Assembly: GCA_027365315.1 (NCBI GenBank) | Contig: DAHXNQ010000091.1 | Location: forward strand, 1 to 56,692 | DNA from: Rhabdochlamydiaceae bacterium | GTDB taxonomy: Bacteria; Chlamydiota; Chlamydiia; Chlamydiales; Rhabdochlamydiaceae | Reading direction: 5' to 3' | DNA length: 56,692 bases | In this document: piece after piece, positions 4,714 through 39,713 of the stretch | Layout: the number at the start of each line of letters is the position of its first letter | How positions within the stretch are numbered: position 1 is the stretch's first letter | Notes under the pieces: model-generated | What the model was told of the DNA's origin: nothing | Seen by the model: the letters and a program-made list of their open reading frames with translations, nothing else | Database searches by the model: none | Translations under genes and position numbers: made by a program

Positions 4714-6100
4714 GTTTGATCACTCCGTCGAAGGTTACTGCTGCAAATTGTACCATGCTCTCGAGTCGCGCTCTATCTCTTTTGGAGTCGCCGGTAGTAG
4801 GGGCTGCCGCCTCGGCTGGCTGAGGCGGGAGGGTGGCAGTGATGGGTGGTGCTGGGGGTGGTGGCATAGCCGGCTCCATAGGAGCCTTGACTGGCGCCGC
4901 TGCCTCAGGGCTCTTGAGCTGCTGCTCTAGCTGCTCCAACCGCTCGATCAGCACCGGCAGCGCAAGCTGGCTTCTGGTTTTGAGGATCTGCAGCAGCAGC
5001 GCCTCCACCATCAGCGAGCGCAAAGAGAGGCGAGGGGGGTGCTGCAGGAAACGGGTGATCAGCTCGACAATTGTCAGTAGCTGCGACACGGTGTAGTGGG
5101 TGGCCGAGCTTCGGTAGAGTGCGCGGGTGGCAGGGTCAAGAATCCAGCTGGGCGCTCCCACAAGATGGCAGGCCAAAAGGGCGCGGTAGTGCTGCAAGAG
5201 CGCCTCGGGAAATCCGCTGAGGTCGGTGCCGCTGTTCTCCATCTGCTCGACTAGCTCCAGCGCTGCCGAAAGCGATCCGGTCTGATAGGCTGTATCGAGT
5301 TGCTGGAGCAGCTCCTGTGGGGGTAGACCCAGCGCTTTCCGTATTGCCTCTGCATTCAGGGGGCCTGAGCCCTCGGAGAGGGTGCAGACCATCTGGTCGA
5401 GCAGCGACTCTCCGTCGCGCAGCGAGCCGTCGGCAAGCTGCGCCAGAAGGGCGAGGGCGCTCTCCTCGATGCAGCAGCTCACTTCCTGTGAGATCTCTTT
5501 GGCAATCAGCTTCAGCTTGGCCAGTATCGCCTCGGCAGGAAGCCTGCGCAGGTCGAACCTCTGGCAGCGGCTGGTGATGGTGGGGAGCATCTTGTGAGGC
5601 TCGGTGGTGGCGAAAAAAAATTTAGCATGCTGAGGCGGCTCCTCCAGCGTCTTCAAAAGGGCGTTAAACGCCTCCTTGGTCAGCATGTGTACCTCGTCGA
5701 TGAGGTAGATTTTGTAGGGGCCGCGAGCGGGGACATAGCCCACCGTTTCGTTGATCTGCCTGATGTCGTCGATACCGCGGTGCGAGGCACCATCGATCTC
5801 GAGTAGATCGAGGGCATGTCCCGCCGCAATTTCAAGACAGGAGCTGCAGCTGCCGCAGGGCTCTGATTCGCTGTTGCGTGCCTGGCAGTTGAGCGCCTTG
5901 GCTAGCAGACGAGCTAGCGTCGTTTTGCCCACACCCCTGCTGCCGCAGAAGAGATAGGCGGGAGCGATACGACCCATTTTTAGAGCGTTTTTGAGGGTGG
6001 TGACAATCGGTTCTTGTCCTACCACCTCGGAAAAAAGCTTTGGACGGTAGATTCTAGATATATTTTTGTACACTCTACAACCCCTGTTCTCTTCTAGCAC
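4706..6100 (-). CDS. dnaX: DNA polymerase III subunit gamma/tau
   Basis: YRPKLFSEVVGQEPIV, the Walker A GSRGVGKTT, the zinc module CGSCSSC and IYLIDEVHML are present. An alternative GTG start at 6076 is possible. Confidence 0.9.
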   Translation of the reverse strand: MLEENRGCRVYKNISRIYRPKLFSEVVGQEPIVTTLKNALKMGRIAPAYLFCGSRGVGKTTLARLLAKALNCQARNSESEPCGSCSSCLEIAAGHALDLLEIDGASHRGIDDIRQINETVGYVPARGPYKIYLIDEVHMLTKEAFNALLKTLEEPPQHAKFFFATTEPHKMLPTITSRCQRFDLRRLPAEAILAKLKLIAKEISQEVSCCIEESALALLAQLADGSLRDGESLLDQMVCTLSEGSGPLNAEAIRKALGLPPQELLQQLDTAYQTGSLSAALELVEQMENSGTDLSGFPEALLQHYRALLACHLVGAPSWILDPATRALYRSSATHYTVSQLLTIVELITRFLQHPPRLSLRSLMVEALLLQILKTRSQLALPVLIERLEQLEQQLKSPEAAAPVKAPMEPAMPPPPAPPITATLPPQPAEAAAPTTGDSKRDRARLESMVQFAAVTFDGVIKHG

Positions 6101-6160
6101 ACCCTACTGGAGTGTAGCAGTGGTTGCAATTCCTCAAAATGACAGCTATCTTCTGAGGAG

Positions 6161-8257
6161 ATGTTTCGCTCTCCGTTACGGCAGGAGAGGCGCGAGCGGC
6201 TCGGAAGAGCGCTTCTTCTGCTATTTGCGCTCGTCTGCCTTACCTGCCTGCTGCACCAGCGGGCTGTCCGCATTGAAATCCCCGAAGTGGGAAGCATAGC
6301 TCCCCGCTACGTCATCGCACAGGTTGATTTTTCCTTCCCCGACGAAGAGGCGACCGATATCTTACGGCGCGAGGCGGTCAAGGATGTAGGGGTGATCTAT
6401 CAGCTGGATCAGGCGCAGCTGCGCGCGGTAGAGCGTCAGCAGCTCCAGCAGCTGATCAGTGATGGATCGTGGCGAAAGCGTCTTCCCGAGGCCACCTTTG
6501 AAGATCTGCAGCACGAGGTGGGGCAGATCACCCTCCTTCTCTCTCGCGCGCGCTGGACCGACAACCGCACCCTGCGCCGCATCGCCCAGTTTGACAAGTC
6601 AAGTGATTGGATTTTTTTACTAGGCCCTCCCGAGTCGCTTCCCTCCTCTCTCTGGGAGGGGCGCCCCTCTCTCGATCGCTATCTCATCGAGGCTTACAGC
6701 AATATTAATTGGAAATTTTTGGAGGATGGCGCCGTCTCCAGATGGGTGCGTAGACGTGTCGAGCATCAGGTGCCCGAAATCACCACTGGCGTCCATGCAG
6801 GTAGCACGCTGATTGGGCAGGGGGAGCACATTGCTCCGCGCCATGTAGCTATGCTGAAGGCGATGCGCGAGGCGATGCATCACCAGCGCGGCGGTATGGA
6901 TTTTGGCTCACTCTTCGGTAGCTTCTGCCTCGCCTGCCTCTTCATTGGACTGGCCCTTCTTTCGATCAAGGCCTACTTCTCGCTGCTGGTCTCTTCATTG
7001 CGCACCTGGAGCCTTCTCACCACCATAGCCCTGGGCACCATCGCCGTCGCTAAGATAGCCGAGCATCTACTGGTACGCGGTCCAGGACCTTTTCTAGACC
7101 TTGTCACCTATCCCATCCTGGTGCCCTTTGCGGCATTGCTGATTTCGCTGCTTCTCAATGCCCATCTAGCCTTCTTCTTCGCCACGCTGCTCTCGCTCTT
7201 CCTGGCTGTCTCGCTGGGTAGCAACGAGGAGCACTTCCTGGTGGTCAACCTAGTTAGCGCCTTCGCTACCATTCTCTTTTCGCGCGGTCTGCATAAAAGA
7301 AAAGAGATATTCTATGTCTGCTTCAAGGCGTGGTTCAGCGCTGTGCTGGTGATTCTCTCCTTTTCGCTGCTCGAGGGCTGTTTCTGGTCTGTCACTACTC
7401 TTGTCGACCTGTCGGTAGCAGGACTGATGCTGATCGTCACCGCTGTGGTGGTGATTGCGGTATTGCCACTGCTAGAGGGGCTCTTTGAGGTGCTGACCGA
7501 CCTCAGCCTGATGGAGTTTATGGATCCGCAGGTGGATCTACTGCGCCGCCTCAACCTCGAGGCGCCCGGCACCTACCAGCACTGCCTGGTGGTGGGCAAC
7601 CTCGCCGAAGCGGCCGCCACCGCCATCGATGCCAAGGGGCTGCTCTGTCGGGTGGGCACCCTCTACCACGACATCGGCAAGCTGGCCTGTCCCCACTACT
7701 TCACCGAAAACCAGCTGGGAGGCTTCGACATCCACCAGCTGCTCACCCCGCTCGAATCGTGCCAGGTGATCATCTCCCATGTGACAGAAGGGGAGAGGCT
7801 GGCGCGCAAGCACAAGCTACCCCAAGCGATCATCGACATCATCCGCGAGCATCACGGCACCACCATCGTCTTCAGCTTCTACCAGAAGCTGCTGCGCAAA
7901 GTGGGCAAAGAGTATGACCTAGTCGACCCAGCGCTCTTCCGCTACAAAGGGCCCAAGCCCCGCTCGCGCGAATCTGCCATTGTGATGATTGCCGACACAG
8001 TCGAAGCTGCCTCCCGCAGCCTTGGCGAGGTAGACGAAGAGGAGCTCACCGCCATGATCGACCGCCTCGTCCAAGAGAAGGCAGACGATGGGCAGTTTGA
8101 CGAATGCCCCCTCACCTTCGAAGAGCTAGGCGCCGTCAAGCGCGCCATCGCCAAAACCCTCGTCGTCACCCGCCACGTGCGTGTCCGCTACGAAAAGCCG
8201 CTACTCGACCCCACTCTCGTCATCGAAACTCGCCCCTATCCAGCAGCCCGCAAATAG
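6161..8257 (+). CDS. 7TM-receptor HD-domain phosphohydrolase (PgpH/YqfF-like)
   Basis: An N-terminal extracytoplasmic region is followed by about 7 hydrophobic helices and then a C-terminal HD domain (YHDIGKL, REHHGT). Confidence 0.85.
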   Translation: MFRSPLRQERRERLGRALLLLFALVCLTCLLHQRAVRIEIPEVGSIAPRYVIAQVDFSFPDEEATDILRREAVKDVGVIYQLDQAQLRAVERQQLQQLISDGSWRKRLPEATFEDLQHEVGQITLLLSRARWTDNRTLRRIAQFDKSSDWIFLLGPPESLPSSLWEGRPSLDRYLIEAYSNINWKFLEDGAVSRWVRRRVEHQVPEITTGVHAGSTLIGQGEHIAPRHVAMLKAMREAMHHQRGGMDFGSLFGSFCLACLFIGLALLSIKAYFSLLVSSLRTWSLLTTIALGTIAVAKIAEHLLVRGPGPFLDLVTYPILVPFAALLISLLLNAHLAFFFATLLSLFLAVSLGSNEEHFLVVNLVSAFATILFSRGLHKRKEIFYVCFKAWFSAVLVILSFSLLEGCFWSVTTLVDLSVAGLMLIVTAVVVIAVLPLLEGLFEVLTDLSLMEFMDPQVDLLRRLNLEAPGTYQHCLVVGNLAEAAATAIDAKGLLCRVGTLYHDIGKLACPHYFTENQLGGFDIHQLLTPLESCQVIISHVTEGERLARKHKLPQAIIDIIREHHGTTIVFSFYQKLLRKVGKEYDLVDPALFRYKGPKPRSRESAIVMIADTVEAASRSLGEVDEEELTAMIDRLVQEKADDGQFDECPLTFEELGAVKRAIAKTLVVTRHVRVRYEKPLLDPTLVIETRPYPAARK

Positions 8258-8303: not shown

Positions 8304-8699
8304 TTAGACACAATTTGCAAAAAAGGCAGCAACTGTCTCTTTTTTTGCCTTTCCTTCGGCAACTAGCCTGACCATTTTCTCCAATTCAGTTTCTGCAAAA
8401 TCAATCGAGCAATGATTCAGTTCTAGGAACATCAGTGCCGAAACTGCGGCGACTCTTTTGTTGCCATCTAGGAATGGATGATTTTGACAAAGGTGGAATA
8501 GATAGGCAGAGGCCTTATCGGACATTGTTTTGTGGAGATATTGTCCTTCGAAGGTGCTGTGGGGTTGAGCGATTGCGGAAAGGAGCAGGGTGTGGTCGCG
8601 TATTCCTCTTATGCCACCGTATCGATTCAGTTGGTCCGAATGGATTTCTAAGACATCATCAAATGTCAAAAAGTATAATTCCATTAACCTACTCAGCAA
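8304..8699 (-). CDS. doc: Doc/Fic-family toxin (death-on-curing)
   Basis: The Fic motif HPFLDGNKRV is present. The protein is 131 aa and overlaps the upstream small antitoxin gene by 11 nt. Confidence 0.85.
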   Translation of the reverse strand: MLSRLMELYFLTFDDVLEIHSDQLNRYGGIRGIRDHTLLLSAIAQPHSTFEGQYLHKTMSDKASAYLFHLCQNHPFLDGNKRVAAVSALMFLELNHCSIDFAETELEKMVRLVAEGKAKKETVAAFFANCV

Positions 8700-8925
8700 G
8701 ACGTTTCAGCGCACGACCAAACTTCTTATTGACCTTCTCAAGAGAGGATGCGAACTGTTCTCTTTGCTGTTCGCTTTTTACGGGGGTGATGACGATAGAG
8801 GAGCCATCGGGTGTCGAGATCTGGAGTAGGGTGTCGCTATCGATTCCTAGCAGCTCGAGGATAGGGCGTTCGATGATCAGTGCGTAACTATTGCCATGCT
8901 TGGTAAGACGTTTTCGAATTGTCAC
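8689..8925 (-). CDS. AbrB/SpoVT-type (Phd-like) antitoxin
   Basis: 78 aa. RLTKHGNSYALIIERPILELLGI is a swapped-hairpin (AbrB/MazE) signature. It lies immediately upstream of doc. Confidence 0.75.
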   Translation of the reverse strand: MTIRKRLTKHGNSYALIIERPILELLGIDSDTLLQISTPDGSSIVITPVKSEQQREQFASSLEKVNKKFGRALKRLAE

Positions 8926-11593: not shown

Positions 11594-11698
11594 TCTGAAC
11601 ACCAGGGGTGCCGAAGAGATTTGGCTGAGAGTGAAGGGGGCAGTTTCTCTTCACAACCCTTAGAACCTGATCAGGTTAAAGCCTGCGTAGGAAGAGTG
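11594..11698 (+). promoter_or_regulatory. TPP (THI-box) riboswitch
   Basis: The conserved blocks GGGGUGC, GGCUGAGA, ACCCUUAGAACCUGAUCAGGUUAAAGCCUGCGUAGGAAG appear in the canonical order. A variable P3 hairpin (GUGAAG...CUUCAC) is present. The element ends at the GGAAGAG/AUG of the downstream gene. Confidence 0.85.
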
Positions 11699-12958
11699 AT
11701 GAAAAAAATATTTTCCACACGACTGCCAGTCGGTGCCCGGCGTATTCTCTCCGGCAACCTCATCGAACATTACGATAACGCCCTCTTTGGTCTGTTAACT
11801 CCATTTTTGGCACCCCTGCTCTTTCCCCATGAAGAGCCGATCATAGCGCTGATTTTGGGCTATGCGCTGATGCCGCTGAGTATGGTGGCCAAGCCCTTGG
11901 GGGCGCTCTTTTTTGGTCGGTGGAGTAGCCATCGCGGTCTGCTTTCGATGCTCAAGGCGACGCTGCTCTGGATGGGCTTCTCCTCCATACTGATGGGACT
12001 CTGCCCTACCTACAGCCAGGTGGGCTATCTGGCTCCTCTGCTGATTTTGTTAGCGCGCCTGCTCCAAAACTTCTGCTCGACGAGCGAGGTGATCGGTGGA
12101 GGTCTTTATCTGATGGGGCGCACCGAAATTCCCGCCCGCGGTTTGTTGAATGGTCTTTATGGCGCCTCCACCATGGCGGGGATCTGGCTCGCTTCGGTGG
12201 CAGTGGCCGCGCTTGCTCTGCAAGATGCTGTCGAGAGCAGCTGGCGCTGGCTCTTTCTGGCGGGAGGCTCGGTGGCTCTCTTTGGCTGGTGGCTGCGGGG
12301 CGAGAATCTGCATGCAGAGGATCACAAGAGCAGCTCCCTCTCTTCGCTTACGGTGCTGCGCAGCCAGATTGGTCCCCTCCTACGCAAGATCCTGGTGGCA
12401 GGTCTGAGTTACTGCTGCTATGTGGTCCCGTTTGCTCTGTCGCAGGGGATGGCTCCCTTTGTGGCGCCTGTCTCCAAGGCGCAGATGGCCGAGCAGACAC
12501 CGGTATTGATGCTGTTTGACTTTCTGATTCTGTTTGTGGTGGCGCTTTTTTCCTCTCACATCCCTCCGCGCAAGATGATGATTGGCGTCAGTGGCGCGCT
12601 GGCCCTCCTCTTTGTACCCCTATTTGCCGCCATGGAGGGGGCCTCTTTACTCCAGCTCATGCTGATCCGCGGCCTACTGGTGGTGTTGGGGGTGCTCTTC
12701 TGCATGCCCATCCGCGCCTGGTCGCTCACCCTGGGCCGAGATGAGGGGCGGCCTACCCTGCTCTTTGTTGGCTATGCGCTGGGTGTCCAGCTGTTTGGCG
12801 CCTCCAGCGCCTCCCTCTCTCTATCGTTTCTGCACCTCACCGGGTGGGCCGGCGCCGCCGGTATCTATCCCGCGCTGCTGGCGCTGACTGTCTGCGCCTG
12901 TCTGCTCTATGAAAAGAAGAGTTCACGCGTTAAGCTTGCTCCTTTTCCTAGTTCGTGA
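11699..12958 (+). CDS. MFS transporter, metabolite:H+ symporter (MHS)-like
   Basis: GNLIEHYDNALFGLL resembles the MHS signature G..iE.YDf. About 12 hydrophobic helices are present. I moved the start to the ATG at 11699 because the track start at 11621 lies inside the riboswitch. Confidence 0.85.
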   Translation: MKKIFSTRLPVGARRILSGNLIEHYDNALFGLLTPFLAPLLFPHEEPIIALILGYALMPLSMVAKPLGALFFGRWSSHRGLLSMLKATLLWMGFSSILMGLCPTYSQVGYLAPLLILLARLLQNFCSTSEVIGGGLYLMGRTEIPARGLLNGLYGASTMAGIWLASVAVAALALQDAVESSWRWLFLAGGSVALFGWWLRGENLHAEDHKSSSLSSLTVLRSQIGPLLRKILVAGLSYCCYVVPFALSQGMAPFVAPVSKAQMAEQTPVLMLFDFLILFVVALFSSHIPPRKMMIGVSGALALLFVPLFAAMEGASLLQLMLIRGLLVVLGVLFCMPIRAWSLTLGRDEGRPTLLFVGYALGVQLFGASSASLSLSFLHLTGWAGAAGIYPALLALTVCACLLYEKKSSRVKLAPFPSS

Positions 12959-12984: not shown

Positions 12985-14328
12985 ATGGATCTCAATTTTG
13001 TTGCCATCGTAGTTCTAGGATCTGTTGCTGCATTAGTCGCAGCTCTCGCCAAGCTCTACCGCAGATGTGCTTCCAACAAAATTCTTGTTGTCTATGGGCG
13101 CATGGGCGGGCGCAAAACGGTGCAGTGCTACCACGGTGGAGGTACCATCGTCTGGCCTCTGATTCAGGGCTGCGCTTTCCTCGATCTAACGCCTCGCAAC
13201 ATCCACATCCCTCTGAAGGGGGCGCTCTCTCAGCAGAACATCCGCGTCAATGTACCCAGCACCTTCACCATCGCTGTAGGCATCACGCCCGACATCATGA
13301 ACAACGCCGCCGTCCGCCTGCTCGATCTCGATCATCGCGGCATCGAATCGATGGCGACCGAGATCATTGTGGGACAGCTGCGCCTCACCATCGCCTCGCT
13401 GCGCATCGAGGAGATCAACCAAGACAGAGAGAGATTCCTCGAGTGGGTAAAGAAAAACATCGAGCCCGAGCTGCACAAGATTGGCCTAACGCTTCTGAAC
13501 GTCAACATCACCGATATCACCGACGAATCGGAGTACATCGAGAGCATCGGGAAGAAGGCCTCTGCCACCGCAGTCAACCAGGCTAAGGTGGATGTGGCTG
13601 AGCAGGAGAAGCAGGGGGAGATCGGTAAGGCGCTTGCCGAGCGCGACCGCCGCGTTTCGGTAGCCGCCTTCAACGCCGAAGCTGTGAAGGGAGAGAACGA
13701 CTCTAAAGCTCACATCGCCCTCACCAATGCCTCCCTAGCTGAGAAACAGGCCGAAGCGACTCGCCGTAGTCAGGTGGCAGGACAGCAGGCCGAAGTGGAG
13801 ATTCAAAAAGCGCGCGCCCTCGCCGAGATGCAGCGCCTCGAGGCCGAAGAGGTGGTGCCCCAAGAGATCAACAAGAAGAAGATTCAGATCGATGCCGAAG
13901 CCGAAGCGCAGCGCAATGTCCTGATTGCGCGCGGTGAAGCGGAAGCCATCCTCGCTGTCCGCCAAGCCGAAGCAGAGGGTATCCAAAAACTGCTCGACGC
14001 CAAAGCCAAGGGCTACAAGCAGCTTGTCGAAGCTTGTGGAGACGATGCCAAAAGCGCCTCCACCATGCTCCTTATCGAGAAGCTGGAAGAGATTGTCAAA
14101 CTGCAGGTCGAGGCGATCAAGAACATCAAGATCGATAAGATCACCGTCTGGGACAGCGGCCAGCATGGCGAAGCGGGAGGCAAAGGCGGCTCGGCCACCT
14201 CTAACTTCATCAGCCAGTTTGTGAAGTCGCTACCTGCCTTGCACGACGTCGCCTCCATGGCCGGCCTGGAACTACCTCAATACCTCGGCCAGGTGACCCC
14301 CTCCTCCGACTCCGAAAGATTAAGCTAG
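12985..14328 (+). CDS. Flotillin/SPFH (band-7) family protein
   Basis: An N-terminal TM (FVAIVVLGSVAALVAALA) is followed by an SPFH domain and a long Ala/Glu/Gln-rich coiled coil (AEAEAQRNVLIARGEAEAILAVRQAEAEG). The start is set to the ATG at 12985. Confidence 0.85.
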   Translation: MDLNFVAIVVLGSVAALVAALAKLYRRCASNKILVVYGRMGGRKTVQCYHGGGTIVWPLIQGCAFLDLTPRNIHIPLKGALSQQNIRVNVPSTFTIAVGITPDIMNNAAVRLLDLDHRGIESMATEIIVGQLRLTIASLRIEEINQDRERFLEWVKKNIEPELHKIGLTLLNVNITDITDESEYIESIGKKASATAVNQAKVDVAEQEKQGEIGKALAERDRRVSVAAFNAEAVKGENDSKAHIALTNASLAEKQAEATRRSQVAGQQAEVEIQKARALAEMQRLEAEEVVPQEINKKKIQIDAEAEAQRNVLIARGEAEAILAVRQAEAEGIQKLLDAKAKGYKQLVEACGDDAKSASTMLLIEKLEEIVKLQVEAIKNIKIDKITVWDSGQHGEAGGKGGSATSNFISQFVKSLPALHDVASMAGLELPQYLGQVTPSSDSERLS

Positions 14329-14601
14329 GCTAATCTTTAGATGCTTTCCAAGGGCTCTTGCGGCCCTTGCGAATGTTCTTAATGTTGAGGGCGATTCAGG
14401 ATCCAGGACTCGTTCGATAGCGGAGCGACTTGTTTCCATACGCTCCGCTAGCTCTGCTTTGTCAATTTTCTGTTTTTGCATTTCTCGTTCTAACTGAAAG
14501 ACAAAAACTCGCTTGGCTGCAACTTCTTCGACCTCTTCGAGAATGCCCTCCTCCTGAAGAAAATCATCGAAGGAAGAGCCGATATGTTTTTTGTTTTTCA
14601 T
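14320..14601 (-). CDS. XRE-type HTH antitoxin (HigA-like)
   Basis: 93 aa. The HTH is IDKAELAERMETSRSAIERVL. It lies 4 nt downstream of the toxin gene. Confidence 0.8.
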   Translation of the reverse strand: MKNKKHIGSSFDDFLQEEGILEEVEEVAAKRVFVFQLEREMQKQKIDKAELAERMETSRSAIERVLDPESPSTLRTFARAARALGKHLKISLA

Positions 14602-14605
14602 ATAA

Positions 14606-14956
14606 TTACCCCAACATTTTAGCTCTGCGCAAGGCTAGTTCCAAATCCTGAGAGGGTGTTTTTTGACTCTTTTTCACAAAGCCATGCAACAACACCATTT
14701 CATGATCGAGCATCGTGAAGATGACCCGTGCAATGCCATCACGGAACGAGCTGCGTACTTCCCATAGGCCTTTCCCGAGATTGCGGACTAAAGGCATTCC
14801 TAGTGGCCATCCGATTTCCACTGTTTTAATATCTTCTCCGATGATTTTTCTCTGCTCTTTCGGAAGAGATTGCAACCATTCCCGAACTGGTTCTTTTCCA
14901 TTGTCCTGCTGCCAAAATCGCACGCTAACAATTTTCTTAGGGGGAGTTGCGCTCAC
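14606..14956 (-). CDS. RelE/HigB-superfamily toxin (Gp49-like)
   Basis: 116 aa. GKEPVREWLQSLPKEQRKIIGEDIKTVEIGWPLGMPLVRNLGKGLWEVR...ARVIFTMLDHEMVLLHGFVKKSQKTP is typical of phage Gp49-like killer proteins. Confidence 0.8.
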   Translation of the reverse strand: MSATPPKKIVSVRFWQQDNGKEPVREWLQSLPKEQRKIIGEDIKTVEIGWPLGMPLVRNLGKGLWEVRSSFRDGIARVIFTMLDHEMVLLHGFVKKSQKTPSQDLELALRRAKMLG

Positions 14957-15078: not shown

Positions 15079-15567
15079 TCAAAACAGTATATGTCTGACA
15101 TCCATTAAGATAGTGGTATGGTGGTGGGCTGTATGGGCGTGAAAGAGGTAGCCCTCCACCGTGACCCGTTGGCTATCGCTTGCAGTGCAAGTTCCTTCCA
15201 TTCCCTCCGCGAGATTGAGGATGATCTCGGTGGAATCGGTGAGAGTAGACCACTCTTTAATCGGTTGTGAATCATCCAGCGGGTCTGCTACTGGCAGAGT
15301 TATAGCAAAGGGCACGGAAGCCTCTTCCAGCTGAAGTACCCAACAATAGTCCTCTCGATCGCCATTCCTTATAGAAGAATATTCGGGAGGGCCTGGGAAG
15401 CGTTTCAAGGTAACAAGACCTCTTAGTGTTACTAGCTTCTCCAAGCAGGTAGTCGATAGCTCACAATGCTCCTTTTGAGCTCTTAGGAAAAGGATGCAGC
15501 GCAATCCACATATTGCGCAGAAGATCGACGTAAATAATATAAAAATATATTTATTTTTTTTCATCAC
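15079..15567 (-). CDS. DUF4431-like secreted/membrane protein
   Basis: An N-terminal hydrophobic segment is present. FPGPPEYSSI...CWVLQL...VTVEGYLFHAHTAHHHTTILMDV matches my memory of the DUF4431 pattern (fPGpPnYes...G.Lf.a.TgHH). An A8 tract follows the ATG (plus-strand T8 at 15554..15561). Confidence 0.55.
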   Translation of the reverse strand: MMKKNKYIFILFTSIFCAICGLRCILFLRAQKEHCELSTTCLEKLVTLRGLVTLKRFPGPPEYSSIRNGDREDYCWVLQLEEASVPFAITLPVADPLDDSQPIKEWSTLTDSTEIILNLAEGMEGTCTASDSQRVTVEGYLFHAHTAHHHTTILMDVRHILF

Positions 15568-15569
15568 AA

Positions 15570-16274
15570 TTATCTAATTAATTCGAACGAGCTAGCTCTA
15601 AATTTAGGACGAAGATAAACGCAGCCTTTTTTCATGTGGACGAGCACCGCATGCAATCTTCCCTCCACTGCTAACTGGATAGCAGCTTCTTTTGAGAACC
15701 AAACAAGCTCATTACTATTCTTAACAAGATATTCGGTAATTACACCTCGTTTTTTATGTACGCCTGAGATGTATAACTTATCAATAAAGTCCTCGCGACC
15801 TACTTCCCAGCTTTCTACCTTCTCCATCGCTTTCCAAAACAACTCAAATTCTTCATCGGTTAGCGATTTTATTGTTCGTTCTGGGTCAAAGCCAGTAATT
15901 GCTACTATGGCATCGATGTATTTTTTATTGGTGCTGTCGTATCTTTTCACGGCAGCTCGTAGGGAAAGTGGAGAGTAGACTCCTCCCTTTAGCATGACAA
16001 CCAGAGCTTCATGACCCGTTGCATAATCTGGGTAGACAGCATATTCATTTTCGCTATCTCCGGCTCGACCTATCGAGCGACGGTTTTTACCCGTGCTATA
16101 GTTGCTGGCAAGCAAATTTCCTGGGTTATTACACCTCCATGCTCGTGATCCTCCACTGCGGATGGTCATGTTCCCCTGCTCATCAAAATATTGGACTGTA
16201 AACTTGCCTGCGGGATCCCCGTAGTTAGGTGGTCCCACCTGAGCTTTTATGAATGCCATACTAGCACCATCCAA
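15570..16274 (-). CDS. Hypothetical protein with an N-terminal 'WRxNNPGN' domain and a C-terminal DUF3892-like domain
   Basis: RAWRCNNPGNL...YAVYPDYATGHEALVVML recalls an uncharacterised phage/cell-wall-associated domain. The C-terminus GVITEYLVKNSNELVWFSKEAAIQLAVEGRLHAVLVH...VYLRP resembles DUF3892. Both assignments are from memory. Confidence 0.5.
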   Translation of the reverse strand: MDGASMAFIKAQVGPPNYGDPAGKFTVQYFDEQGNMTIRSGGSRAWRCNNPGNLLASNYSTGKNRRSIGRAGDSENEYAVYPDYATGHEALVVMLKGGVYSPLSLRAAVKRYDSTNKKYIDAIVAITGFDPERTIKSLTDEEFELFWKAMEKVESWEVGREDFIDKLYISGVHKKRGVITEYLVKNSNELVWFSKEAAIQLAVEGRLHAVLVHMKKGCVYLRPKFRASSFELIR

Positions 16275-18251: not shown

Positions 18252-19865
18252 TTATCCTTTTCGCGGTTTTTTGGCTGCAGGCTGATCCTCTTCGGCCGCA
18301 TCTCCAATCAGCACTTCGGTCAGGAGAGTGGTGGCCGCTGCAGAGACAGCATATTTAAGGGCATTTTCAACAACTTCGCGAGGATCGACTATGCCGCTCT
18401 TCACCAGATCTTCCACCTTCTCGGTGAGGGCGTTGAAGCCGAAGGAGGGCTCCTGGAGCCGCACCTCTTCTAGCAAGACCGAGCTATCTTTGCCGGCGTT
18501 AGCTACGATCTGGCGGAAGGGGGCGTGGCAGGCGAGTCGCAGCGCGTCGGCGCCCAACTTCTCGCTTCCCTTGAGCTTCAGAGACTTCACAGCGTCGCTA
18601 GCGCGCAGGAGGGCGATGCCGCCACCTGTCACCACACCGCCGCGTGAGGCTGCTTTGGCCGAGTTGAGACTGTCCCCAAGCTTCTGCTTCTTCTCTTTCA
18701 CTTCTGGTTCGGTGCTGCCGCCGACGCGAATCACACCGACGCCGCCCAGCAGTTTGGCTCTGCGGGTCTCGAGATGTTCGCGGTCGTAGCTATTTTTGCT
18801 CTGCGCCATCTCGTGCGCCAGCTGCGCAGCACGCATCTGGATCGCTTCGGGCTCTCCGCCGCCGCCGATGAGGGTGCTCTTCTCTTTGTTGATCTGTAGA
18901 CGTTCCACACTACCGAGGGAGCTCATGTCGGTATCCTTCAGCAGGAGACCAGCCTTTTCGGAAATGAGAGTAGCGCCGGTGAGGATGGCGATATCCTGCA
19001 GCATCGCCTCGCGGCGATCGCCAAAACCAGGGGCCTTCACCGCTGCGATCTTGAGGGTGCCGCGTAGACGGTTGATCACCAGTGTCGAGAGAGCGTCGCC
19101 TTCGATGTCGTCGGCGATGATTAGAAGGGGAGTGCCTGTAGCGGCTACAGCTTGCAGAACCGGCAGAATCTCCTGGATGGAGGAGATCTTCTTGTCGGTC
19201 ACCAGAATCTTGCAGTTCTCTAACTCAACATTCATCGTGTCTGTATTGGTGCAGAAGTAGGCGCTGGCATAGCCGCGGTCAAACTGCATGCCCTGCACAA
19301 TGTCGATGGTGGTTTCGGTGGTTTTGCCCTCTTCGATGGTGATGACACCTTCTTTGCCCACCTTCTCGAATGCCTCGGCAATGAGGCTGCCCAGATCGGC
19401 GTTGCTCGATGCAGAGGCGATGCTGAGGATCTCCTCTTTGCCCTGTACAGGGTGGGAGGTTTCGGCCAGCTTAGCCAGCACTGTTTCCAGAGCAGCCTCC
19501 ATGCCGCGCTTCACCTCGATGGGGCTATGGCCAGCAGAGACCAGCTTCAGTCCCTGTCCCGCCAAAGAGCCGAGAAGTAGCAGGCTGGTGGTGGTGCCAT
19601 CACCACACTTCTCCTTCATCTTGCCCGACACCTCTTTAGCGATCATCACACCCATTTGGGCATACTGATCGGCTAGCTCCACCTCTTTGGCGATGCTGGC
19701 TCCGTCGCTGGTGATCGAGGGTGTTCCCCATGAGGCTTCCAGTCCAACGCCTCGTCCTTTGGGACCCAGCGTGACGGCCACCACCTGCGTGATCTCATCG
19801 AGTCCCTGGCGCAGTTTGGCGCGGGCCTCTTCGTCAAAAATCAGGTCCTTGGCTGCATCTGACAT
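18252..19865 (-). CDS. groEL: Chaperonin GroEL paralog (no groES partner, no GGM tail)
   Basis: 537 aa. VTLGPKGR and GDGTTT are present, and the C-terminus AAEEDQPAAKKPRKG replaces the GGM repeats. AGGAGG SD is present. Confidence 0.9.
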   Translation of the reverse strand: MSDAAKDLIFDEEARAKLRQGLDEITQVVAVTLGPKGRGVGLEASWGTPSITSDGASIAKEVELADQYAQMGVMIAKEVSGKMKEKCGDGTTTSLLLLGSLAGQGLKLVSAGHSPIEVKRGMEAALETVLAKLAETSHPVQGKEEILSIASASSNADLGSLIAEAFEKVGKEGVITIEEGKTTETTIDIVQGMQFDRGYASAYFCTNTDTMNVELENCKILVTDKKISSIQEILPVLQAVAATGTPLLIIADDIEGDALSTLVINRLRGTLKIAAVKAPGFGDRREAMLQDIAILTGATLISEKAGLLLKDTDMSSLGSVERLQINKEKSTLIGGGGEPEAIQMRAAQLAHEMAQSKNSYDREHLETRRAKLLGGVGVIRVGGSTEPEVKEKKQKLGDSLNSAKAASRGGVVTGGGIALLRASDAVKSLKLKGSEKLGADALRLACHAPFRQIVANAGKDSSVLLEEVRLQEPSFGFNALTEKVEDLVKSGIVDPREVVENALKYAVSAAATTLLTEVLIGDAAEEDQPAAKKPRKG

Positions 19866-35348: not shown

Positions 35349-35576
35349 ATGACCAAAGCAAAGAGATCCTCCAAGCGAGAAAAATCCTCAAAAAACAAGC
35401 CGAGGCTTCGTCTTAAAAAGGGCATTAAGTTGTCTAAGCATGATCCATTCAAAGCTCTCGTGGATGAAAAGCTCATCGCTCAAGCTCTTTGGGAATGCTT
35501 GAAAGAGAATGACCTCGAGGGGGCGATAGAAATAACCAACGCTCATTTGAAAGCTCTAGCGGCTGCGGAAGCATGA
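35349..35576 (+). CDS. Small ORF, possibly a truncated 'addiction-module antidote' remnant
   Basis: 75 aa with a Lys/Ser-rich N-terminus. HDPFKALVDEKLIAQALWECLKENDLEGAIEITNAHLKAL resembles only the N-terminal part of HigA/TIGR02684-type antidotes (fd.aeyL.deE.i..yL..aLee.D). No HTH follows. Confidence 0.35.
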   Translation: MTKAKRSSKREKSSKNKPRLRLKKGIKLSKHDPFKALVDEKLIAQALWECLKENDLEGAIEITNAHLKALAAAEA

Positions 35577-35600: not shown

Positions 35601-35634
35601 CGTCATCGACCTGCACCTCGTCTATCTCGATTGA
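35600..35634 (+). repeat. Duplicated ftsQ 3' end (copy 2, includes a TGA)
   Basis: See 35296..35339. Confidence 0.6.
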
Positions 35635-35687
35635 TGAAAAATCTTTCCTAGCATAGTGTAGAAGCCACAAAAACTCTTTGGAGTGGC

Positions 35688-37433
35688 GTGATGCACTATC
35701 CCTGCATGTGGCTCTGGAGGCTATTTCTCCCGATCTTTCTCTGTTCTCTCTTTTTTGCTGCTCCAAGCCTGCCTGCACAGGAGATTCACTCTGTTCCTCA
35801 GCCTCTTGCTCGTCTGCATGGACTTCTTTCCGGCGTCTGGTGTCAGCCACTAGAAGGGGCCTCTTCTTACGAGCTCCTGCAATACAGCTGCGAGGAATTG
35901 GCCTCTATTTGCGAAGAACTTGCCGATCTAATCGAACAAGATAGAGAAGAGGATACACCTTATATTCGTCACACGACAGAGCTGCTTTTGGGACTTATGC
36001 AGAGGGCAGAGCCTTATCTCCCTGAGGAAGAGTGGGGGAAGTGGGCCTATGAAGTGGCTACGTTGCAGCTGCTTCTGCAGCTGCTAGACGAAGAAGAGCC
36101 TGTTTACGAGGAGAGTGGCTGGCACACCATTCCGTGCAAAAGTAAGGGCTTTTGGAAAGGGATTGGGAATGGACTTGCCTCTGTGAAGCACGAGGTGGTG
36201 AAAGTGGTACGCCATCTTGGAAGAGAAATCCGTGAACATCCCGTTCGCTCTCTTGTCATCGCCGGTGCTGCAGCGGGTCTTGGCTTTGGTATCTATACCT
36301 GCTGCAACTCTTCCTCGCATGCGGCTGATCCAGTCCCTCATGGCAATGCTTTGCCTCCGGAACAGTCGTCGCCACCGATCCCACGGCAAGAAGAGCGATC
36401 AGAGTCACCTCCTCCTAATGAACAGCGAGAGCTTCAGACTCTCGTATTTGATCTTGTCGCAGTAGATACGGTGCAAGATGTACCTTCCTCTCTCTCTGAT
36501 AGCGGTGCATATTTTCTTGATGAGACAAGTATAGAAGCGCGTTTTGCTGCCCATACGGAGGAACTCTACCGTGCAGGGGTAGAGGCGGTGAAGGGCATTG
36601 TGCATGGAGCGATTGACTTTCAGTGGCGGACCGTTCAGGACCTAGAGGCATTTGCCTTTCTCATTGGATCGGGAGAGGTGGAGGCCTCTTTCGATGAAAG
36701 AAGAATGATCATGGACTCTTTCTTGAGATCGCAGGTCTCACAGGAAGCCGCGGTTGAGGGTTGGGTTCAGGATGTGTTCAATATCGATCCTTCAGATCCA
36801 ACCTACCAACAGTTCCGTTCAGGCACAGAGAAGACGCTCGAGATCGGATCGATTGCTTTTGGGGTTTACGGGATAGGCAAGGGAATCATGAAGATTGGCA
36901 CCAGAATGGTGGTCGCAGAGCTAGGGGAGTTCCTCTATGCTGGTCGCAATGTAGGAGGCGAATTGGCCCTCGCAAAGGAGTGCGTTGCTGGGGCTCATCA
37001 ACTGGAGAAGGCGGCAGTTGCAGAGGTTCGTGCCGGTCGCATCGCTGCGAACGAACTGACTCCCGCAGCTCATCGATTGGAAAAATTGGCCGAGGCCGAG
37101 GCTTGTGCTGGCAGGGCTGTAAGAGATTGGCCCGTATCAACGGAAAAAATTCGATCTTATTTATCTGATGCTAAGTTATTAAGTGGAGATCAAATTATTC
37201 ATGACCTGGAGTCGATTGGTTTTAAAATCAAAGGCAAGAGTCCGGACGGTAGATTTATAGAATTTCAGGATGCGCTTGGCAATGTCAGAGTAAAAATGCA
37301 TCCTCCGGATCGAGTGACTGAATATAACCATTTGCACATATATGATCAGTTTGGGAACTCCCTCAACAAGGATTTAGAAGTAGTGGATCGATGTTCTCAA
37401 GAGGCGCATATTCTTTTTGGGGATTCTCCATGA
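35688..37433 (+). CDS. Secreted, polymorphic-toxin-like protein with a low-GC C-terminal module
   Basis: Signal-peptide-like N-terminus (WLWRLFLPIFLCSLFFAAPSLPAQ), internal TM (SLVIAGAAAGLGFGIYTCC), and a tandem AH(Q/R)LEK...AGR repeat. The last roughly 100 aa (LLSGDQIIHDLESIGFKIKGKSPDGRFIEFQDALGNVRVKMHPPDRVTEYNHLHIYDQFGN) are encoded by DNA that drops to about 28-40% GC. ATG at 35691, GTG at 35688. Confidence 0.6.
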   Translation: MMHYPCMWLWRLFLPIFLCSLFFAAPSLPAQEIHSVPQPLARLHGLLSGVWCQPLEGASSYELLQYSCEELASICEELADLIEQDREEDTPYIRHTTELLLGLMQRAEPYLPEEEWGKWAYEVATLQLLLQLLDEEEPVYEESGWHTIPCKSKGFWKGIGNGLASVKHEVVKVVRHLGREIREHPVRSLVIAGAAAGLGFGIYTCCNSSSHAADPVPHGNALPPEQSSPPIPRQEERSESPPPNEQRELQTLVFDLVAVDTVQDVPSSLSDSGAYFLDETSIEARFAAHTEELYRAGVEAVKGIVHGAIDFQWRTVQDLEAFAFLIGSGEVEASFDERRMIMDSFLRSQVSQEAAVEGWVQDVFNIDPSDPTYQQFRSGTEKTLEIGSIAFGVYGIGKGIMKIGTRMVVAELGEFLYAGRNVGGELALAKECVAGAHQLEKAAVAEVRAGRIAANELTPAAHRLEKLAEAEACAGRAVRDWPVSTEKIRSYLSDAKLLSGDQIIHDLESIGFKIKGKSPDGRFIEFQDALGNVRVKMHPPDRVTEYNHLHIYDQFGNSLNKDLEVVDRCSQEAHILFGDSP

Positions 37434-37804
37434 GGATATTGGATGCTGAGATGATGAAACACCTCTCTTTTCCAGATTGTTTGGTCGAAAAGATGGAATT
37501 ATCGCATGGCAAGAAGCACTTAGTTGTCATGGTGGATGGGGCTTGGTTGGATCTATCTGGAGGACAAGCTCTTGGAAGAGGCGTTTTGTATTTCTCTGAT
37601 TGGAGCGAACTGATGGTGCGGGCGTGGGATCATACTACAGAGACCTGGTCAACATTGGAGGGTGAGTCTATCGAGATTCTAAGAGAGTTATGCGAAGCAA
37701 AGTTTGATGACAAAACCGCTTGTTTACGTGGATTTGGCGAACGAAGTGGTAGATGGATCGAGTGGAAAATGGACGCAGTCATGGTGAGGTCAGAATTTTC
37801 CTGA
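37430..37804 (+). CDS. Candidate cognate immunity protein
   Basis: The ATG overlaps the toxin stop (ATGA at 37430..37433). It is a 124-aa cytosolic-looking protein (MRILDAEMMKHL...), and one 60-nt line (37441..37500) counts 40% GC. I recognise no family. Confidence 0.5.
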   Translation: MRILDAEMMKHLSFPDCLVEKMELSHGKKHLVVMVDGAWLDLSGGQALGRGVLYFSDWSELMVRAWDHTTETWSTLEGESIEILRELCEAKFDDKTACLRGFGERSGRWIEWKMDAVMVRSEFS

Positions 37805-37968
37805 CAATGGATCTCGCATGAGGATTACATCCTATTCCGCGTGGGAAGAGATGGGGTTTCATCTTGTTTATGCTGATATGCGATGGAAATGAGGGCTTTT
37901 CTGGTGGGGAAGGCGGCGGCTGATTATGCTGCTGAGTGCACTCGGAACTGAACTCCTAAGAGGGGAGT

Positions 37969-38256
37969 ATGAAAGAATTTGTTTTGTACATTGTGAAAAA
38001 CTTAGTAGAAAAACCTGCTAGCGCTGCTGTGACGATGCGCGAAGAGGGCGAAGTGCTCTATTTTGAGATCAGCGTCGATGCGGGCGATGCGGCGAGGGTG
38101 GTGGGGCGCAAAGGGCGCAACATCCAGTCTCTGCGCACGCTGGCTACAGCTGTGGCGGCCCGTTTTGGCAGAAAGGCGCGCCTGAATCTGGCCGATGAAC
38201 TGGCCACCGTCGAAAAGCGGGAAGGTGCAGCCGAAGAGATTGCAAATCCTGTGTAG
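37969..38256 (+). CDS. KH-domain RNA-binding protein (YlqC/UPF0109)
   Basis: 95 aa. VVGRKGRNIQSLRTLA contains the GxxG KH motif. Confidence 0.85.
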   Translation: MKEFVLYIVKNLVEKPASAAVTMREEGEVLYFEISVDAGDAARVVGRKGRNIQSLRTLATAVAARFGRKARLNLADELATVEKREGAAEEIANPV

Positions 38257-38309
38257 AACAATTTGCGCTCGATATCTAGACTGGCACCGTAAGAGAAGGA
38301 TGGATTGCG

Positions 38310-38675
38310 ATGACAGTAGAGCTTCGAATTGCCGAAGAGCAGCGTGGTGATGTGCTGCTTCTGCGTCTGGTGGGAAGACTGGATGTGATGCATGCACCTC
38401 TTTGCGATAAGGTGATCACCACCTCCGCTTCGAGGGGCGTGCGCTTTGTGGTGATCGACCTTTCGGGTGTGGAGTATCTCAGTAGCGCGGGGCTGCGTGT
38501 GCTGCTGGCCGGTTCGAAGGCTTTAGAGAGTCGCTCGGGGAAGCTACTGCTGGCTGGGCCTGCAGCGCCTGTATTGCAGGTACTGAAGATGTCCGGCTTC
38601 GACCGGATTCTTCCCATCTTCCTCACCGAGGATGAAGCGGTGGAGTCGTTGCGTGGCCGTGAGACAAAGCAGTAG
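38310..38675 (+). CDS. rsbV: STAS-domain anti-sigma-factor antagonist
   Basis: 121 aa. VVIDLSGVEYLSSAGLRVLL contains the phosphorylatable Ser context. Confidence 0.85.
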   Translation: MTVELRIAEEQRGDVLLLRLVGRLDVMHAPLCDKVITTSASRGVRFVVIDLSGVEYLSSAGLRVLLAGSKALESRSGKLLLAGPAAPVLQVLKMSGFDRILPIFLTEDEAVESLRGRETKQ

Positions 38676-38684
38676 GCGCTAAGG

Positions 38685-39713
38685 GTGATCCCAGGGATCG
38701 AAGTTGAAGATGAAGAGCTGGAGCGTCTGCTCCAGCACTTTACGCTGCCAGAGAGGCAATTTTTGCCCACCAACACCAAGAAGGCGAAGGTGCTGGTGCT
38801 GGCGGGTCCCACTGCAGTGGGCAAAAGTGCTCTCGCCATCCAGATTGCACGTCTGGTGGGCGGGCAGGTGGTCTCGGCAGATTCGATGCAGGTCTATCGC
38901 GGCATGGATATCGGTACTGCCAAGCCCTCTATGGCCGAGCGGGAGGAGATCCCGCACCATCTGATCGACATCCGCGATGTCTCCCAAAAATTTCATGTAG
39001 CCGAATTCTACGAAGAGGCCACCTCGGCGATTCGTCGGATCATCGATGAGGGGGCGGTGCCCATTGTGGCAGGCGGCACCGGCTTTTATCTCCATGCGCT
39101 GCTCTATGGCCCTCCATCGGGCCCCGCTAGCGACCCCGCTGTCCGCCGCGCCATCGAGGCCGAGATGGATGAGAAAGGGCCGCTTCCTCTTTTTGAGAGG
39201 CTGAAAGAGAAAGACCCTCTCTACGCCTCAAGCATCACCCGCAGCGACCGCCACAAGATTGTGCGGGCACTCGAGATCATGCAGCTGAGTGGCAAGAGGG
39301 TCTCCGACTTCTCCGCCTCGGCTGGTGGCTGCGCCGATAAATACAACTTCCGCTGCTGGTTTCTCCATCTGCCCAAGGAGCAGCTCTACTCGCGCATCGA
39401 GGCGCGCTGTGACAAGATGATCGATGCTGGCTTGATCGAAGAGGTGGAGCGTCTCAAAGAGCAGGGGCTCGAGCAGAACGAGACCGCCTCACAGGCGATT
39501 GGCTACCGGCAGGTGCTGGACTATCTCGCCTCCTCGCAGGACGAAGAGGCGCATCGGCATCTGGTACGCGAGTTCAAGCAGGCGTCGCGCCGCTATGCCA
39601 AAAGGCAGTTCACCTGGTTTCGCAAGGAGCCGCTCTTCCGCTGGCTCGACCTCAGCCGCTTCCAGCTGGAGTTGGCCACCGAGCTGATTCTGCAGGATCT
39701 CGAGCTTAGTTAA
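38685..39713 (+). CDS. miaA: tRNA dimethylallyltransferase
   Basis: LAGPTAVGKSALAIQIA, SADSMQVYRGMDIGTAKP and YAKRQFTWFR are present. Confidence 0.9.
   Translation: MIPGIEVEDEELERLLQHFTLPERQFLPTNTKKAKVLVLAGPTAVGKSALAIQIARLVGGQVVSADSMQVYRGMDIGTAKPSMAEREEIPHHLIDIRDVSQKFHVAEFYEEATSAIRRIIDEGAVPIVAGGTGFYLHALLYGPPSGPASDPAVRRAIEAEMDEKGPLPLFERLKEKDPLYASSITRSDRHKIVRALEIMQLSGKRVSDFSASAGGCADKYNFRCWFLHLPKEQLYSRIEARCDKMIDAGLIEEVERLKEQGLEQNETASQAIGYRQVLDYLASSQDEEAHRHLVREFKQASRRYAKRQFTWFRKEPLFRWLDLSRFQLELATELILQDLELS
39476..39713 (+). repeat. 238-bp direct repeat, copy 1 (the authentic miaA 3' end)
   Basis: It aligns base for base with 43615..43852, with roughly a dozen mismatches and no indels. Confidence 0.9.

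Follow-up and report, generated by a model that had tools for sequence, protein, structure and literature searches.

Results

Organization and base composition of the locus

The DNA analyzed here is a stretch of 56,692 nucleotides (the window; all coordinates refer to its forward strand, position 1 being its first letter). It contains a gene for a 581-amino-acid (aa) protein followed by a gene for a 124-aa protein, and the ATG of the second gene (37430-37432) overlaps the TGA of the first (37431-37433) in the sequence ATGA. An earlier note on this DNA had described the pair as a polymorphic toxin gene with a foreign C-terminal module (the tip) and a small, translationally coupled, immunity-like gene whose ATGA start lies on the toxin stop codon; the overlap is present as claimed. 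This reading is strongly supported by the exchange of the tip in a related strain, the family to which the C-terminal tip belongs, ten loci in which tip and small gene are paired and a match to the nuclease PT7. We put at about 0.85 the probability of a polymorphic toxin-immunity module whose tip is a PT7-family nuclease. For the 124-aa gene the start at 37430 was preferred over an upstream ATG at 37391 because an alignment of 12 homologs supports it.

The base composition changes sharply within the 581-aa open reading frame (ORF). The body (35688-37103) has a G+C content of 0.528, the tip (37104-37430) one of 0.407 and the 124-aa gene one of 0.457, compared to 0.557 in the window overall. At third codon positions it is 0.33 in the tip versus 0.64-0.74 in murC, the gene at the FtsQ position, the STAS gene and miaA. 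A 726-bp cassette containing the tip and the 124-aa gene has a G+C content of 0.434, which is within the lowest 0.85% among all 726-bp segments of the stretch, and the composition break is therefore not due to chance. Segment values and ranking agree with the break described before, and the three hand counts given for it (35/60, 17/60 and 24/60) were reproduced exactly. A scan for promoters and terminators found sites no more numerous than in shuffled sequence.

Tip and downstream gene were exchanged between related strains

A search of 5.8 billion proteins with the 581-aa protein returned a single homolog, P0001 (572 aa), encoded on the 3.5-kb contig L001; no full-body relatives were found in a metagenome scan. 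The two proteins are 81% identical over residues 1-472 and unrelated after the motif ..AEAEA(C/V)A. On the DNA level, L001 183-1685 corresponds to window 35602-37103 at 84% identity and L001 2504-3553 to window 37871-38920 at 92-93% (a KH-domain gene of the KhpA type, the STAS gene and miaA). Nothing can be aligned between these flanks, where L001 carries its own unrelated tip and a different downstream gene of 155 aa. Since the flanks match and the middle is without similarity, the exchanged unit consists of the tip and the downstream gene (approximately 37104-37817), and the downstream gene co-varies with the tip. The swapped C-terminal module that had been postulated was thus found, and the C-terminus, whose invariance would have spoken against a toxin, differs in the only available homolog of the body. 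The body itself, which had been assumed to be conserved, is so by its identity to this homolog and by its ratio of non-synonymous to synonymous substitution rates (dN/dS, 0.17).

Adjacent to the cassette lies a remnant of the displaced L001-type immunity gene, which matches L001 2016-2057 at 93% in blastn and shows 75% identity over residues 1-20 in tblastn. Directly 3' of it, 446 bp are deleted relative to L001. The exchange is recent; the older downstream gene was displaced first, and most of it was then deleted. No convincing repeats were detected at the cassette borders. Searches with the modules of L001 gave for the tip only a non-significant match (CdiA-CT 5I4Q, E 0.2) and for the 155-aa protein no match.

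Orphan cassettes, which the earlier note had suggested looking for, and displaced ones are represented by this remnant and by an orphan tip fragment with an immunity homolog on contig L012. There (6001-7392), a pair of PT7-like tip and immunity gene precedes an orphaned piece of an L001-type tip and a homolog of the L001 155-aa protein; in the window the two cassette types have the same order. L016 (6001-6689), which lies on the contig of L008, contains a decayed tip fragment joined to an immunity fragment as well as an L001-type tip fragment. Elsewhere in the window, no second copy of the tip, of the immunity gene or of the L001-type modules was found.

The tip belongs to the PT7 toxin family

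A phmmer search of the Protein Data Bank (PDB) with the tip returned one match, chain B of entry 8OWU (8owu_B, E 1.7e-10), and a profile of the 39-sequence tip family matched the same chain with an E of 8.7e-20. The AlphaFold2 (AF2) model of the tip, calculated from the family alignment, had a predicted local distance difference test score (pLDDT) of 92. The structure search proposed earlier for residues ~480-581 was performed with Foldseek and returned 8owu_C, with a template modeling (TM) score of 0.91 (target-normalized) or 0.66 (query-normalized), a root-mean-square deviation of 1.6 A and 32% identity; 8owu_C and 8owu_B were the only matches at E<=0.001. These results place the tip in the PT7 toxin family (PDB 8OWU). 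Pfam and NCBIfam gave no significant match for the tip, nor for a fragment of 8owu_B. A HicA/dsRBD-like fold, of which the tip had loosely reminded the earlier reader, fails as an explanation because there was no Pfam match at E<=1, PT7 was the sole significant match in Foldseek and the PT7 topology is, according to its authors, unlike known proteins.

PT7 of Bacillus cereus, PT7(Bc), is fused to LXG and poisons both E. coli and yeast; the protein acts as a non-specific endo-DNase that depends on Mg, its topology resembles that of no known protein, its toxicity is abolished by mutation of D37 or H47, and its catalytic pocket is occluded by PIM7 (Nachmias et al., bioRxiv 10.1101/2021.10.19.465003). 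Wild type PT7 also degrades rRNA (2026 preprint). By analogy, the tip would be a Mg-dependent nuclease degrading DNA. In the family alignment H548, H550 and H574 are invariant and H538, D528, R534 and T544 nearly so; all of them are present in the tip, which has lost none of the positions with a consensus of >=70%. With our own offset of the 8owu_B numbering, H47 of PT7 corresponds to the invariant H548 and D37 to H538.

A word-index search with the tip gave no matches; the family was found by an exhaustive HMMER search, which yielded 272 representative relatives (clusters) at E<=1e-3 and 100 at E<=1e-10. In almost all of them no more than a few residues separate the domain from the C-terminus; the proteins are 100-2300 aa long. 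Pfam scans of 43 relatives identified as scaffolds RHS repeats (8), PT-TG (5), DUF6531 (3), LXG (2), haemagglutinin repeats (2), SpvB/TcdB (1) and a PAAR-like domain (1). PKD-type domains were seen in two of the scanned relatives. Three proteins of 1399-2117 aa (P0008, P0077, P0082) match only positions 15-74 of the 107-position tip query (protein residues 489-548), 8-13 times each; the repeated matches may be spurious or may reflect a small beta module in common.

A genome scan run with a 7-sequence alignment showed that the nearest named tip relatives (53-63% identity) are encoded in metagenome-assembled genomes (MAGs) of Chlamydiota (L006, L007, L008, L010, L011), followed by Pseudobacteriovorax, a planctomycete and Sphingomonas leidyi. 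The tips of these relatives have a G+C content of 0.27-0.40, which fits a low-GC donor of the cassette.

A family of small proteins is paired with the tip

Homologs of the 124-aa protein are encoded 3' of a PT7-like tip, at -4 to +4 nt from its stop codon, at ten independent loci among the genome and metagenome loci that were fetched. The paired loci include Rhs proteins of Chlamydiota MAGs, Pseudobacteriovorax and a planctomycete. In the case of homolog P0004, for example, the gene overlaps the stop codon of an Rhs protein of 1374 aa, which over its last 96 residues is 41% identical to the tip of the window. The pairing of tip and small gene is thus conserved; together with the ATGA overlap it bears out the earlier description of the small gene as coupled and immunity-like. 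Its product is probably the cognate immunity protein, which would bind and block the nuclease in the producer.

Eleven of the 12 aligned family members have an isoelectric point (pI) of 4.5-5.2, and that of the remaining one is 6.33. The 124-aa protein has no match in Pfam, NCBIfam or the PDB, and this candidate immunity family of ~125 aa is uncatalogued in all three. On L005, a further homolog, frameshifted, is part of a series of small ORFs that resembles an orphan immunity array.

The carrier combines a lineage-specific N-terminal part with an adaptor of Rhs toxins

Neither Pfam nor NCBIfam gave a significant match for the 581-aa protein, and a search of the PDB with a body profile also returned nothing. 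A hydropathy plot showed an N-terminal hydrophobic stretch (residues 4-33) in agreement with the signal peptide noted before (Table 1). The internal transmembrane helix that had been proposed held up in part: there is a second hydrophobic segment at residues 184-208, but its Kyte-Doolittle maximum of 1.65 over 19 residues is marginal for a membrane helix. The lineage-specific N-terminal part also contains a Pro-rich linker. Compared to L001, the whole body is under purifying selection: its overall dN/dS is 0.17, that of residues 31-185 is 0.06 and that of residues 296-405 is 0.10. The overall value shows that the toxin ORF is a functional gene.

Residues 296-405 are 41% identical to a segment of the Rhs protein of a Chlamydiae MAG (L007), located just upstream of its toxin domain and after the self-cleavage motif ..GPNLYAY..(Y/F)GL. 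A metagenome scan with this adaptor detected it in five further Rhs proteins (L032-L036, 25-43% identity). Behind it, these proteins carry at least four other tips, and the small ORF downstream differs from one tip to the next; the tip of L034 matches DUF4258. The last ~100 aa of L032 and L033 contain '..RQFRMD(F/L)(K/N)HP(A/K)PHKNPH(S/A)HLIEYE..', which resembles the PT7 motif 'R.K.HP.D...DH.H.Y', and may represent a distant PT7 branch with a different downstream protein of 60 aa.

The 581-aa protein falls into neither the Rhs nor the CdiA/contact-dependent inhibition class: Pfam returned no match to RHS_repeat or DUF6531, nor to a two-partner secretion domain or haemagglutinin repeats, and its junction motif is AEAEA, where VENN was looked for in the case of CdiA. 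The self-cleavage motif is found in L002, L006, L007, L011 and L012 and has no counterpart in the 581-aa protein. The protein is in effect a complete Rhs "released tip" (residues 296-581) fused to an N-terminal part specific to the lineage. The pre-toxin adaptor known from chlamydial Rhs toxins is thus able to function, or in any case to be maintained by selection, even where the carrier has no Rhs shell.

Table 1. Coordinates of the features at the locus
Feature	Position	Strand	Details
Toxin gene, polymorphic	35688..37433	+	581 aa from GTG 35688; 580 aa from ATG 35691 (other gene callers)
Sec-type signal peptide, predicted	35688..35777	+	residues 1-30, ending ..SLPA before QE; hydropathy
Acidic N-terminal domain	35778..36242	+	residues 31-185, no known family
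Gly/Ala-rich hydrophobic segment, possible transmembrane helix	36243..36305	+	residues 186-206
Pre-toxin adaptor domain	36573..36902	+	residues 296-405; common to post-cleavage tips of Rhs toxins
Helical linker	36903..37133	+	two AHxLEKxAxAE repeats; left breakpoint ~37104-37109, after the AEAEA codons
Horizontally replaced low-GC cassette (tip and immunity gene)	37104..37817	+	no similarity to L001; G+C ~0.43
PT7-family nuclease toxin domain	37134..37430	+	residues 483-581
Conserved His codons	H538 37299-37301; H548 37329-37331; H550 37335-37337; H574 37407-37409	+	
Candidate cognate immunity gene	37430..37804	+	124 aa, pI 5.05, ATGA overlap with toxin stop
Remnant of displaced L001-type immunity gene	37818..37892	+	24 codons and stop, MRITSYSAWEEMGFHLVYADMRWK followed by the stop

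Genomic surroundings and other features of the window

The window has the gene order divergent GroEL, murF, mraY, murD, LysM protein, ftsW, three ORFs, murG, murC, FtsQ-position gene, toxin locus, KhpA-type gene, STAS gene, miaA and autotransporter. Neither ftsA nor ftsZ follows, and for the 299-aa product of the FtsQ-position gene Pfam gave no match. We take this gene order to be like that of C. trachomatis CT755-CT766. In Chlamydia, CT755 is groEL3 and CT765 is RsbV2, as known from the literature. The divergent GroEL paralog of the window (18252-19865, minus strand; Pfam E only 1e-62) is encoded two genes upstream of murF, the same place relative to murF as groEL3. A chlamydial origin of the window is likely and consistent with the gene order. 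A G+C content of 56% would be unusual for Chlamydiota. A genome scan of the species set found the locus in no genome there, and the proteins of the window were otherwise matched only in metagenome contigs.

Upstream of the toxin gene, ~42 bp from the 3' end of the FtsQ-position gene are directly repeated (35300-35346 and 35604-35641, 85-94% identity). The two copies flank a low-GC, Lys-rich ORF of 75 aa (35349-35576) that adjoins the toxin gene and for which Pfam and NCBIfam scans gave nothing significant. L001 has kept the right-hand copy, and its sequence upstream of this copy is unrelated to the window. The arrangement suggests a hot spot for insertions or what is left of an integrated element.

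Several other islands were observed. A low-GC island on the minus strand (8304-8925) encodes a Fic/Doc toxin (Pfam E 1.5e-17) and an overlapping antitoxin of the MazE/AbrB type, a Phd-Doc-like toxin-antitoxin pair, and a second one (14320-14956, minus strand) a Gp49/HigB-like toxin (E 2.5e-23) with a helix-turn-helix antitoxin. The patch with the lowest G+C content of the window (0.41; 15079-16274, minus strand) codes for a 234-aa protein without family and, 2 nt later, for a 162-aa protein with a signal-like N-terminus and a DUF4431 domain (E 4.3e-9); it may be another effector/immunity-like pair. The three ORFs between ftsW and murG (27254-31932) have no family match and interrupt the cell-wall gene cluster. 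Two of their products, of 626 and 545 aa, are paralogous; their hydrophobic N-termini are nearly identical, and both contain repeated '(Y)(A/T)IWPWG' modules. A thiamine pyrophosphate riboswitch (11594-11711, plus strand) was located upstream of the ORF at 11621.

Discussion

The locus displays the features by which polymorphic toxins are recognized (Zhang/Aravind, 2012): a shared body with unrelated tips, a tip that occurs on diverse scaffolds, a downstream gene that co-varies with the tip, and displaced cassette and immunity remnants. We propose that tip and immunity gene (37104-37817) arrived together in a single low-GC cassette through recombination immediately behind the AEAEA linker. The cassette would have replaced an older tip/immunity pair that is still present in the sister strain (L001), leaving a stump of the older immunity gene behind. 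The product would consist of a lineage-specific N-terminal part (signal peptide, acidic domain, hydrophobic segment and Pro-rich linker), a pre-toxin adaptor like those that follow the self-cleavage site in chlamydial-type Rhs toxins, and a terminal PT7-family domain that would act as a Mg-dependent nuclease on DNA and, going by the 2026 preprint, on rRNA. The acidic 124-aa protein, translated from the overlapping ATGA, would bind and block this nuclease in the producer, and the toxin would be exported; its target may be either the eukaryotic host or competitors among the bacteria of the same niche.

A number of points weigh against this proposal. The N-terminal secretion module consists of a segment that is signal-peptide-like by hydropathy alone, and Pfam, NCBIfam and the PDB profile revealed no known trafficking domain in the 581-aa protein. 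Should residues 186-206 act as a stop-transfer helix once the signal peptide has been cleaved, the toxin end would be cytoplasmic. The body is known in two proteins only. According to our offset-based mapping, the position equivalent to D37 is a His in the tip, as in most of its subclade; and the net charge of the tip (-3) is the lowest among the 39 family members (median +5.5), which could weaken DNA binding. The immunity role of the 124-aa protein is derived solely from the conserved pairing with the tip. A fold comparison, also suggested in the earlier note, was uninformative for this protein because its AF2 model was poor (pLDDT 56), and the Foldseek matches of the model were not significant. 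The profile of the 12-member family found no PDB chain and no chain of 8OWU at E<=10; the family is therefore different from PIM7 or has diverged from it beyond recognition. In the published in vitro assay, PT7 mutants were not blocked by PIM7 (bioRxiv 10.1101/2021.10.19.465003).

Other explanations were weighed against the same data. That the composition break and the ATGA overlap are a coincidence in ordinary genes, without any functional module, can hardly be entertained: only the absence of Pfam and NCBIfam matches speaks for it, and it is refuted by homology and synteny (the L001 swap, the PT7 match, the tip family and the ten paired loci). The PT7 nuclease might instead be an effector that is delivered into a eukaryotic host such as an amoeba, with the 124-aa protein protecting the producer before export only. 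PT7 kills yeast as well as bacteria, the gene order of the window resembles Chlamydia and the closest tip relatives are found in Chlamydiota MAGs, all of which would suit a host-directed role. We nevertheless consider it improbable, since an immunity gene that stays closely linked to the tip in different phyla is characteristic of conflict between bacteria, the pairing is also present in free-living Sphingomonas-type and Pseudobacteriovorax genomes, and orphan immunity arrays, such as the one apparent on L005, make sense only with a toxin delivered by kin or competitors. Furthermore, the predicted host-directed toxins of amoeba symbionts are without associated immunity proteins (Zhang et al., 2012; PMC3482391), and neither a type III secretion signal nor an Inc-like bilobed hydrophobic domain turned up, although no test was aimed at either.

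The locus could also be a stranded Rhs tip, in which an orphan cassette of pre-toxin, toxin and immunity gene became fused to a local membrane-protein gene and is now a non-exported, toxin-antitoxin-like addiction module or a relic. Purifying selection on the body (dN/dS 0.17 overall, 0.06 in the N-terminal domain) is difficult to reconcile with this, as is the in-frame exchange of tips that this body has undergone at one junction in two strains, which is the behavior of a working polymorphic toxin; in addition, the consensus positions of the nuclease domain are all kept. A stranded tip would account for the lack of an Rhs shell around residues 296-581, which nonetheless form a complete post-cleavage Rhs tip, and the hydrophobic segment could hold the C-terminal half in the cytoplasm. 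The unusually low net charge of the tip and the other low-GC toxin-antitoxin islands in the window also fit. On balance we give this explanation little credence and prefer an exported polymorphic toxin with its immunity protein.

The system type and the toxin family are already known, and the general picture of polymorphic toxins is unchanged by the locus; as regards membership, the immunity family, the carrier without Rhs and the wider phyletic range are new. The locus is a clean natural case of tip and immunity gene replacement in a pair of closely related strains; both breakpoints are mapped, and the displaced immunity gene is seen part-way through its decay. It also defines a tightly linked candidate immunity family of ~125 aa. 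PT7 had been reported only from Firmicutes and Proteobacteria (bioRxiv 10.1101/2021.10.19.465003), and the family is now extended to Chlamydiota MAGs, a planctomycete and Pseudobacteriovorax. The combination of a carrier without Rhs and an adaptor of Rhs toxins poses the question of how such a toxin exits the cell. Speculatively, and in our view rather unlikely, it could represent a new delivery format in a chlamydia-like intracellular bacterium, in which a short, Sec-exported, membrane-associated carrier has kept of Rhs only the pre-toxin adaptor, exchanges nuclease tips and is accompanied by an unrecognized PT7 immunity fold. Because PT7 kills bacteria and yeast, such a module could act against co-infecting symbionts or the host inside the eukaryotic cell.

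Comparison with known systems

MafB/MafI of Neisseria are Sec-dependent short polymorphic toxins with an immunity gene immediately downstream and with displaced or orphan cassettes. The protein of the window has no similarity to the MafB N-terminus (no Pfam match), contains an internal hydrophobic segment and comes from another lineage; it resembles MafB in its predicted signal peptide, lineage-specific N-terminal domain, variable tip and adjoining downstream candidate immunity gene, and displaced or orphan cassettes are seen in both cases. A 'T2SS (MafBN)' class (T2SS, type II secretion system) is listed by Zhang et al. (2012; PMC3482391).

With PT7/PIM7 of Bacillus cereus (PDB 8OWU) the locus shares a homologous toxin domain (31-32% identity, target-normalized TM score 0.84-0.91) that is C-terminal and followed by a small downstream gene with a probable protector role, and the HxH...H histidine cluster, which by our mapping includes the position of the mutated H47, is common to both. 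Unlike PT7, the domain of the window has two extra N-terminal helices (query-normalized TM score 0.66), a His at the D37 position and a net charge of -3. Its carrier is not an LXG/type VII protein, and the downstream protein is without sequence similarity to the PIM7 chain.

The earlier note considered such toxins unexpected in a chlamydia-like lineage. The nearest named tip relatives are encoded in Chlamydiota MAGs, and a polymorphic toxin in chlamydiae is not surprising because many Rhs-borne toxin domains have been listed for this group (Zhang et al., 2012; PMC3482391). Compared to the Rhs (YD-repeat) toxins of environmental Chlamydiota (L006, L007, L011), the protein of the window is short (581 aa versus about 1750 aa) and without RHS repeats, DUF6531 and the ..GPNLYAY..(Y/F)GL self-cleavage motif. 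It shares with them the PT7-like tip, the immunity family, a predicted Sec-type signal peptide and, in the case of L007, the same pre-toxin adaptor, and their low G+C content matches that of the cassette in the window.

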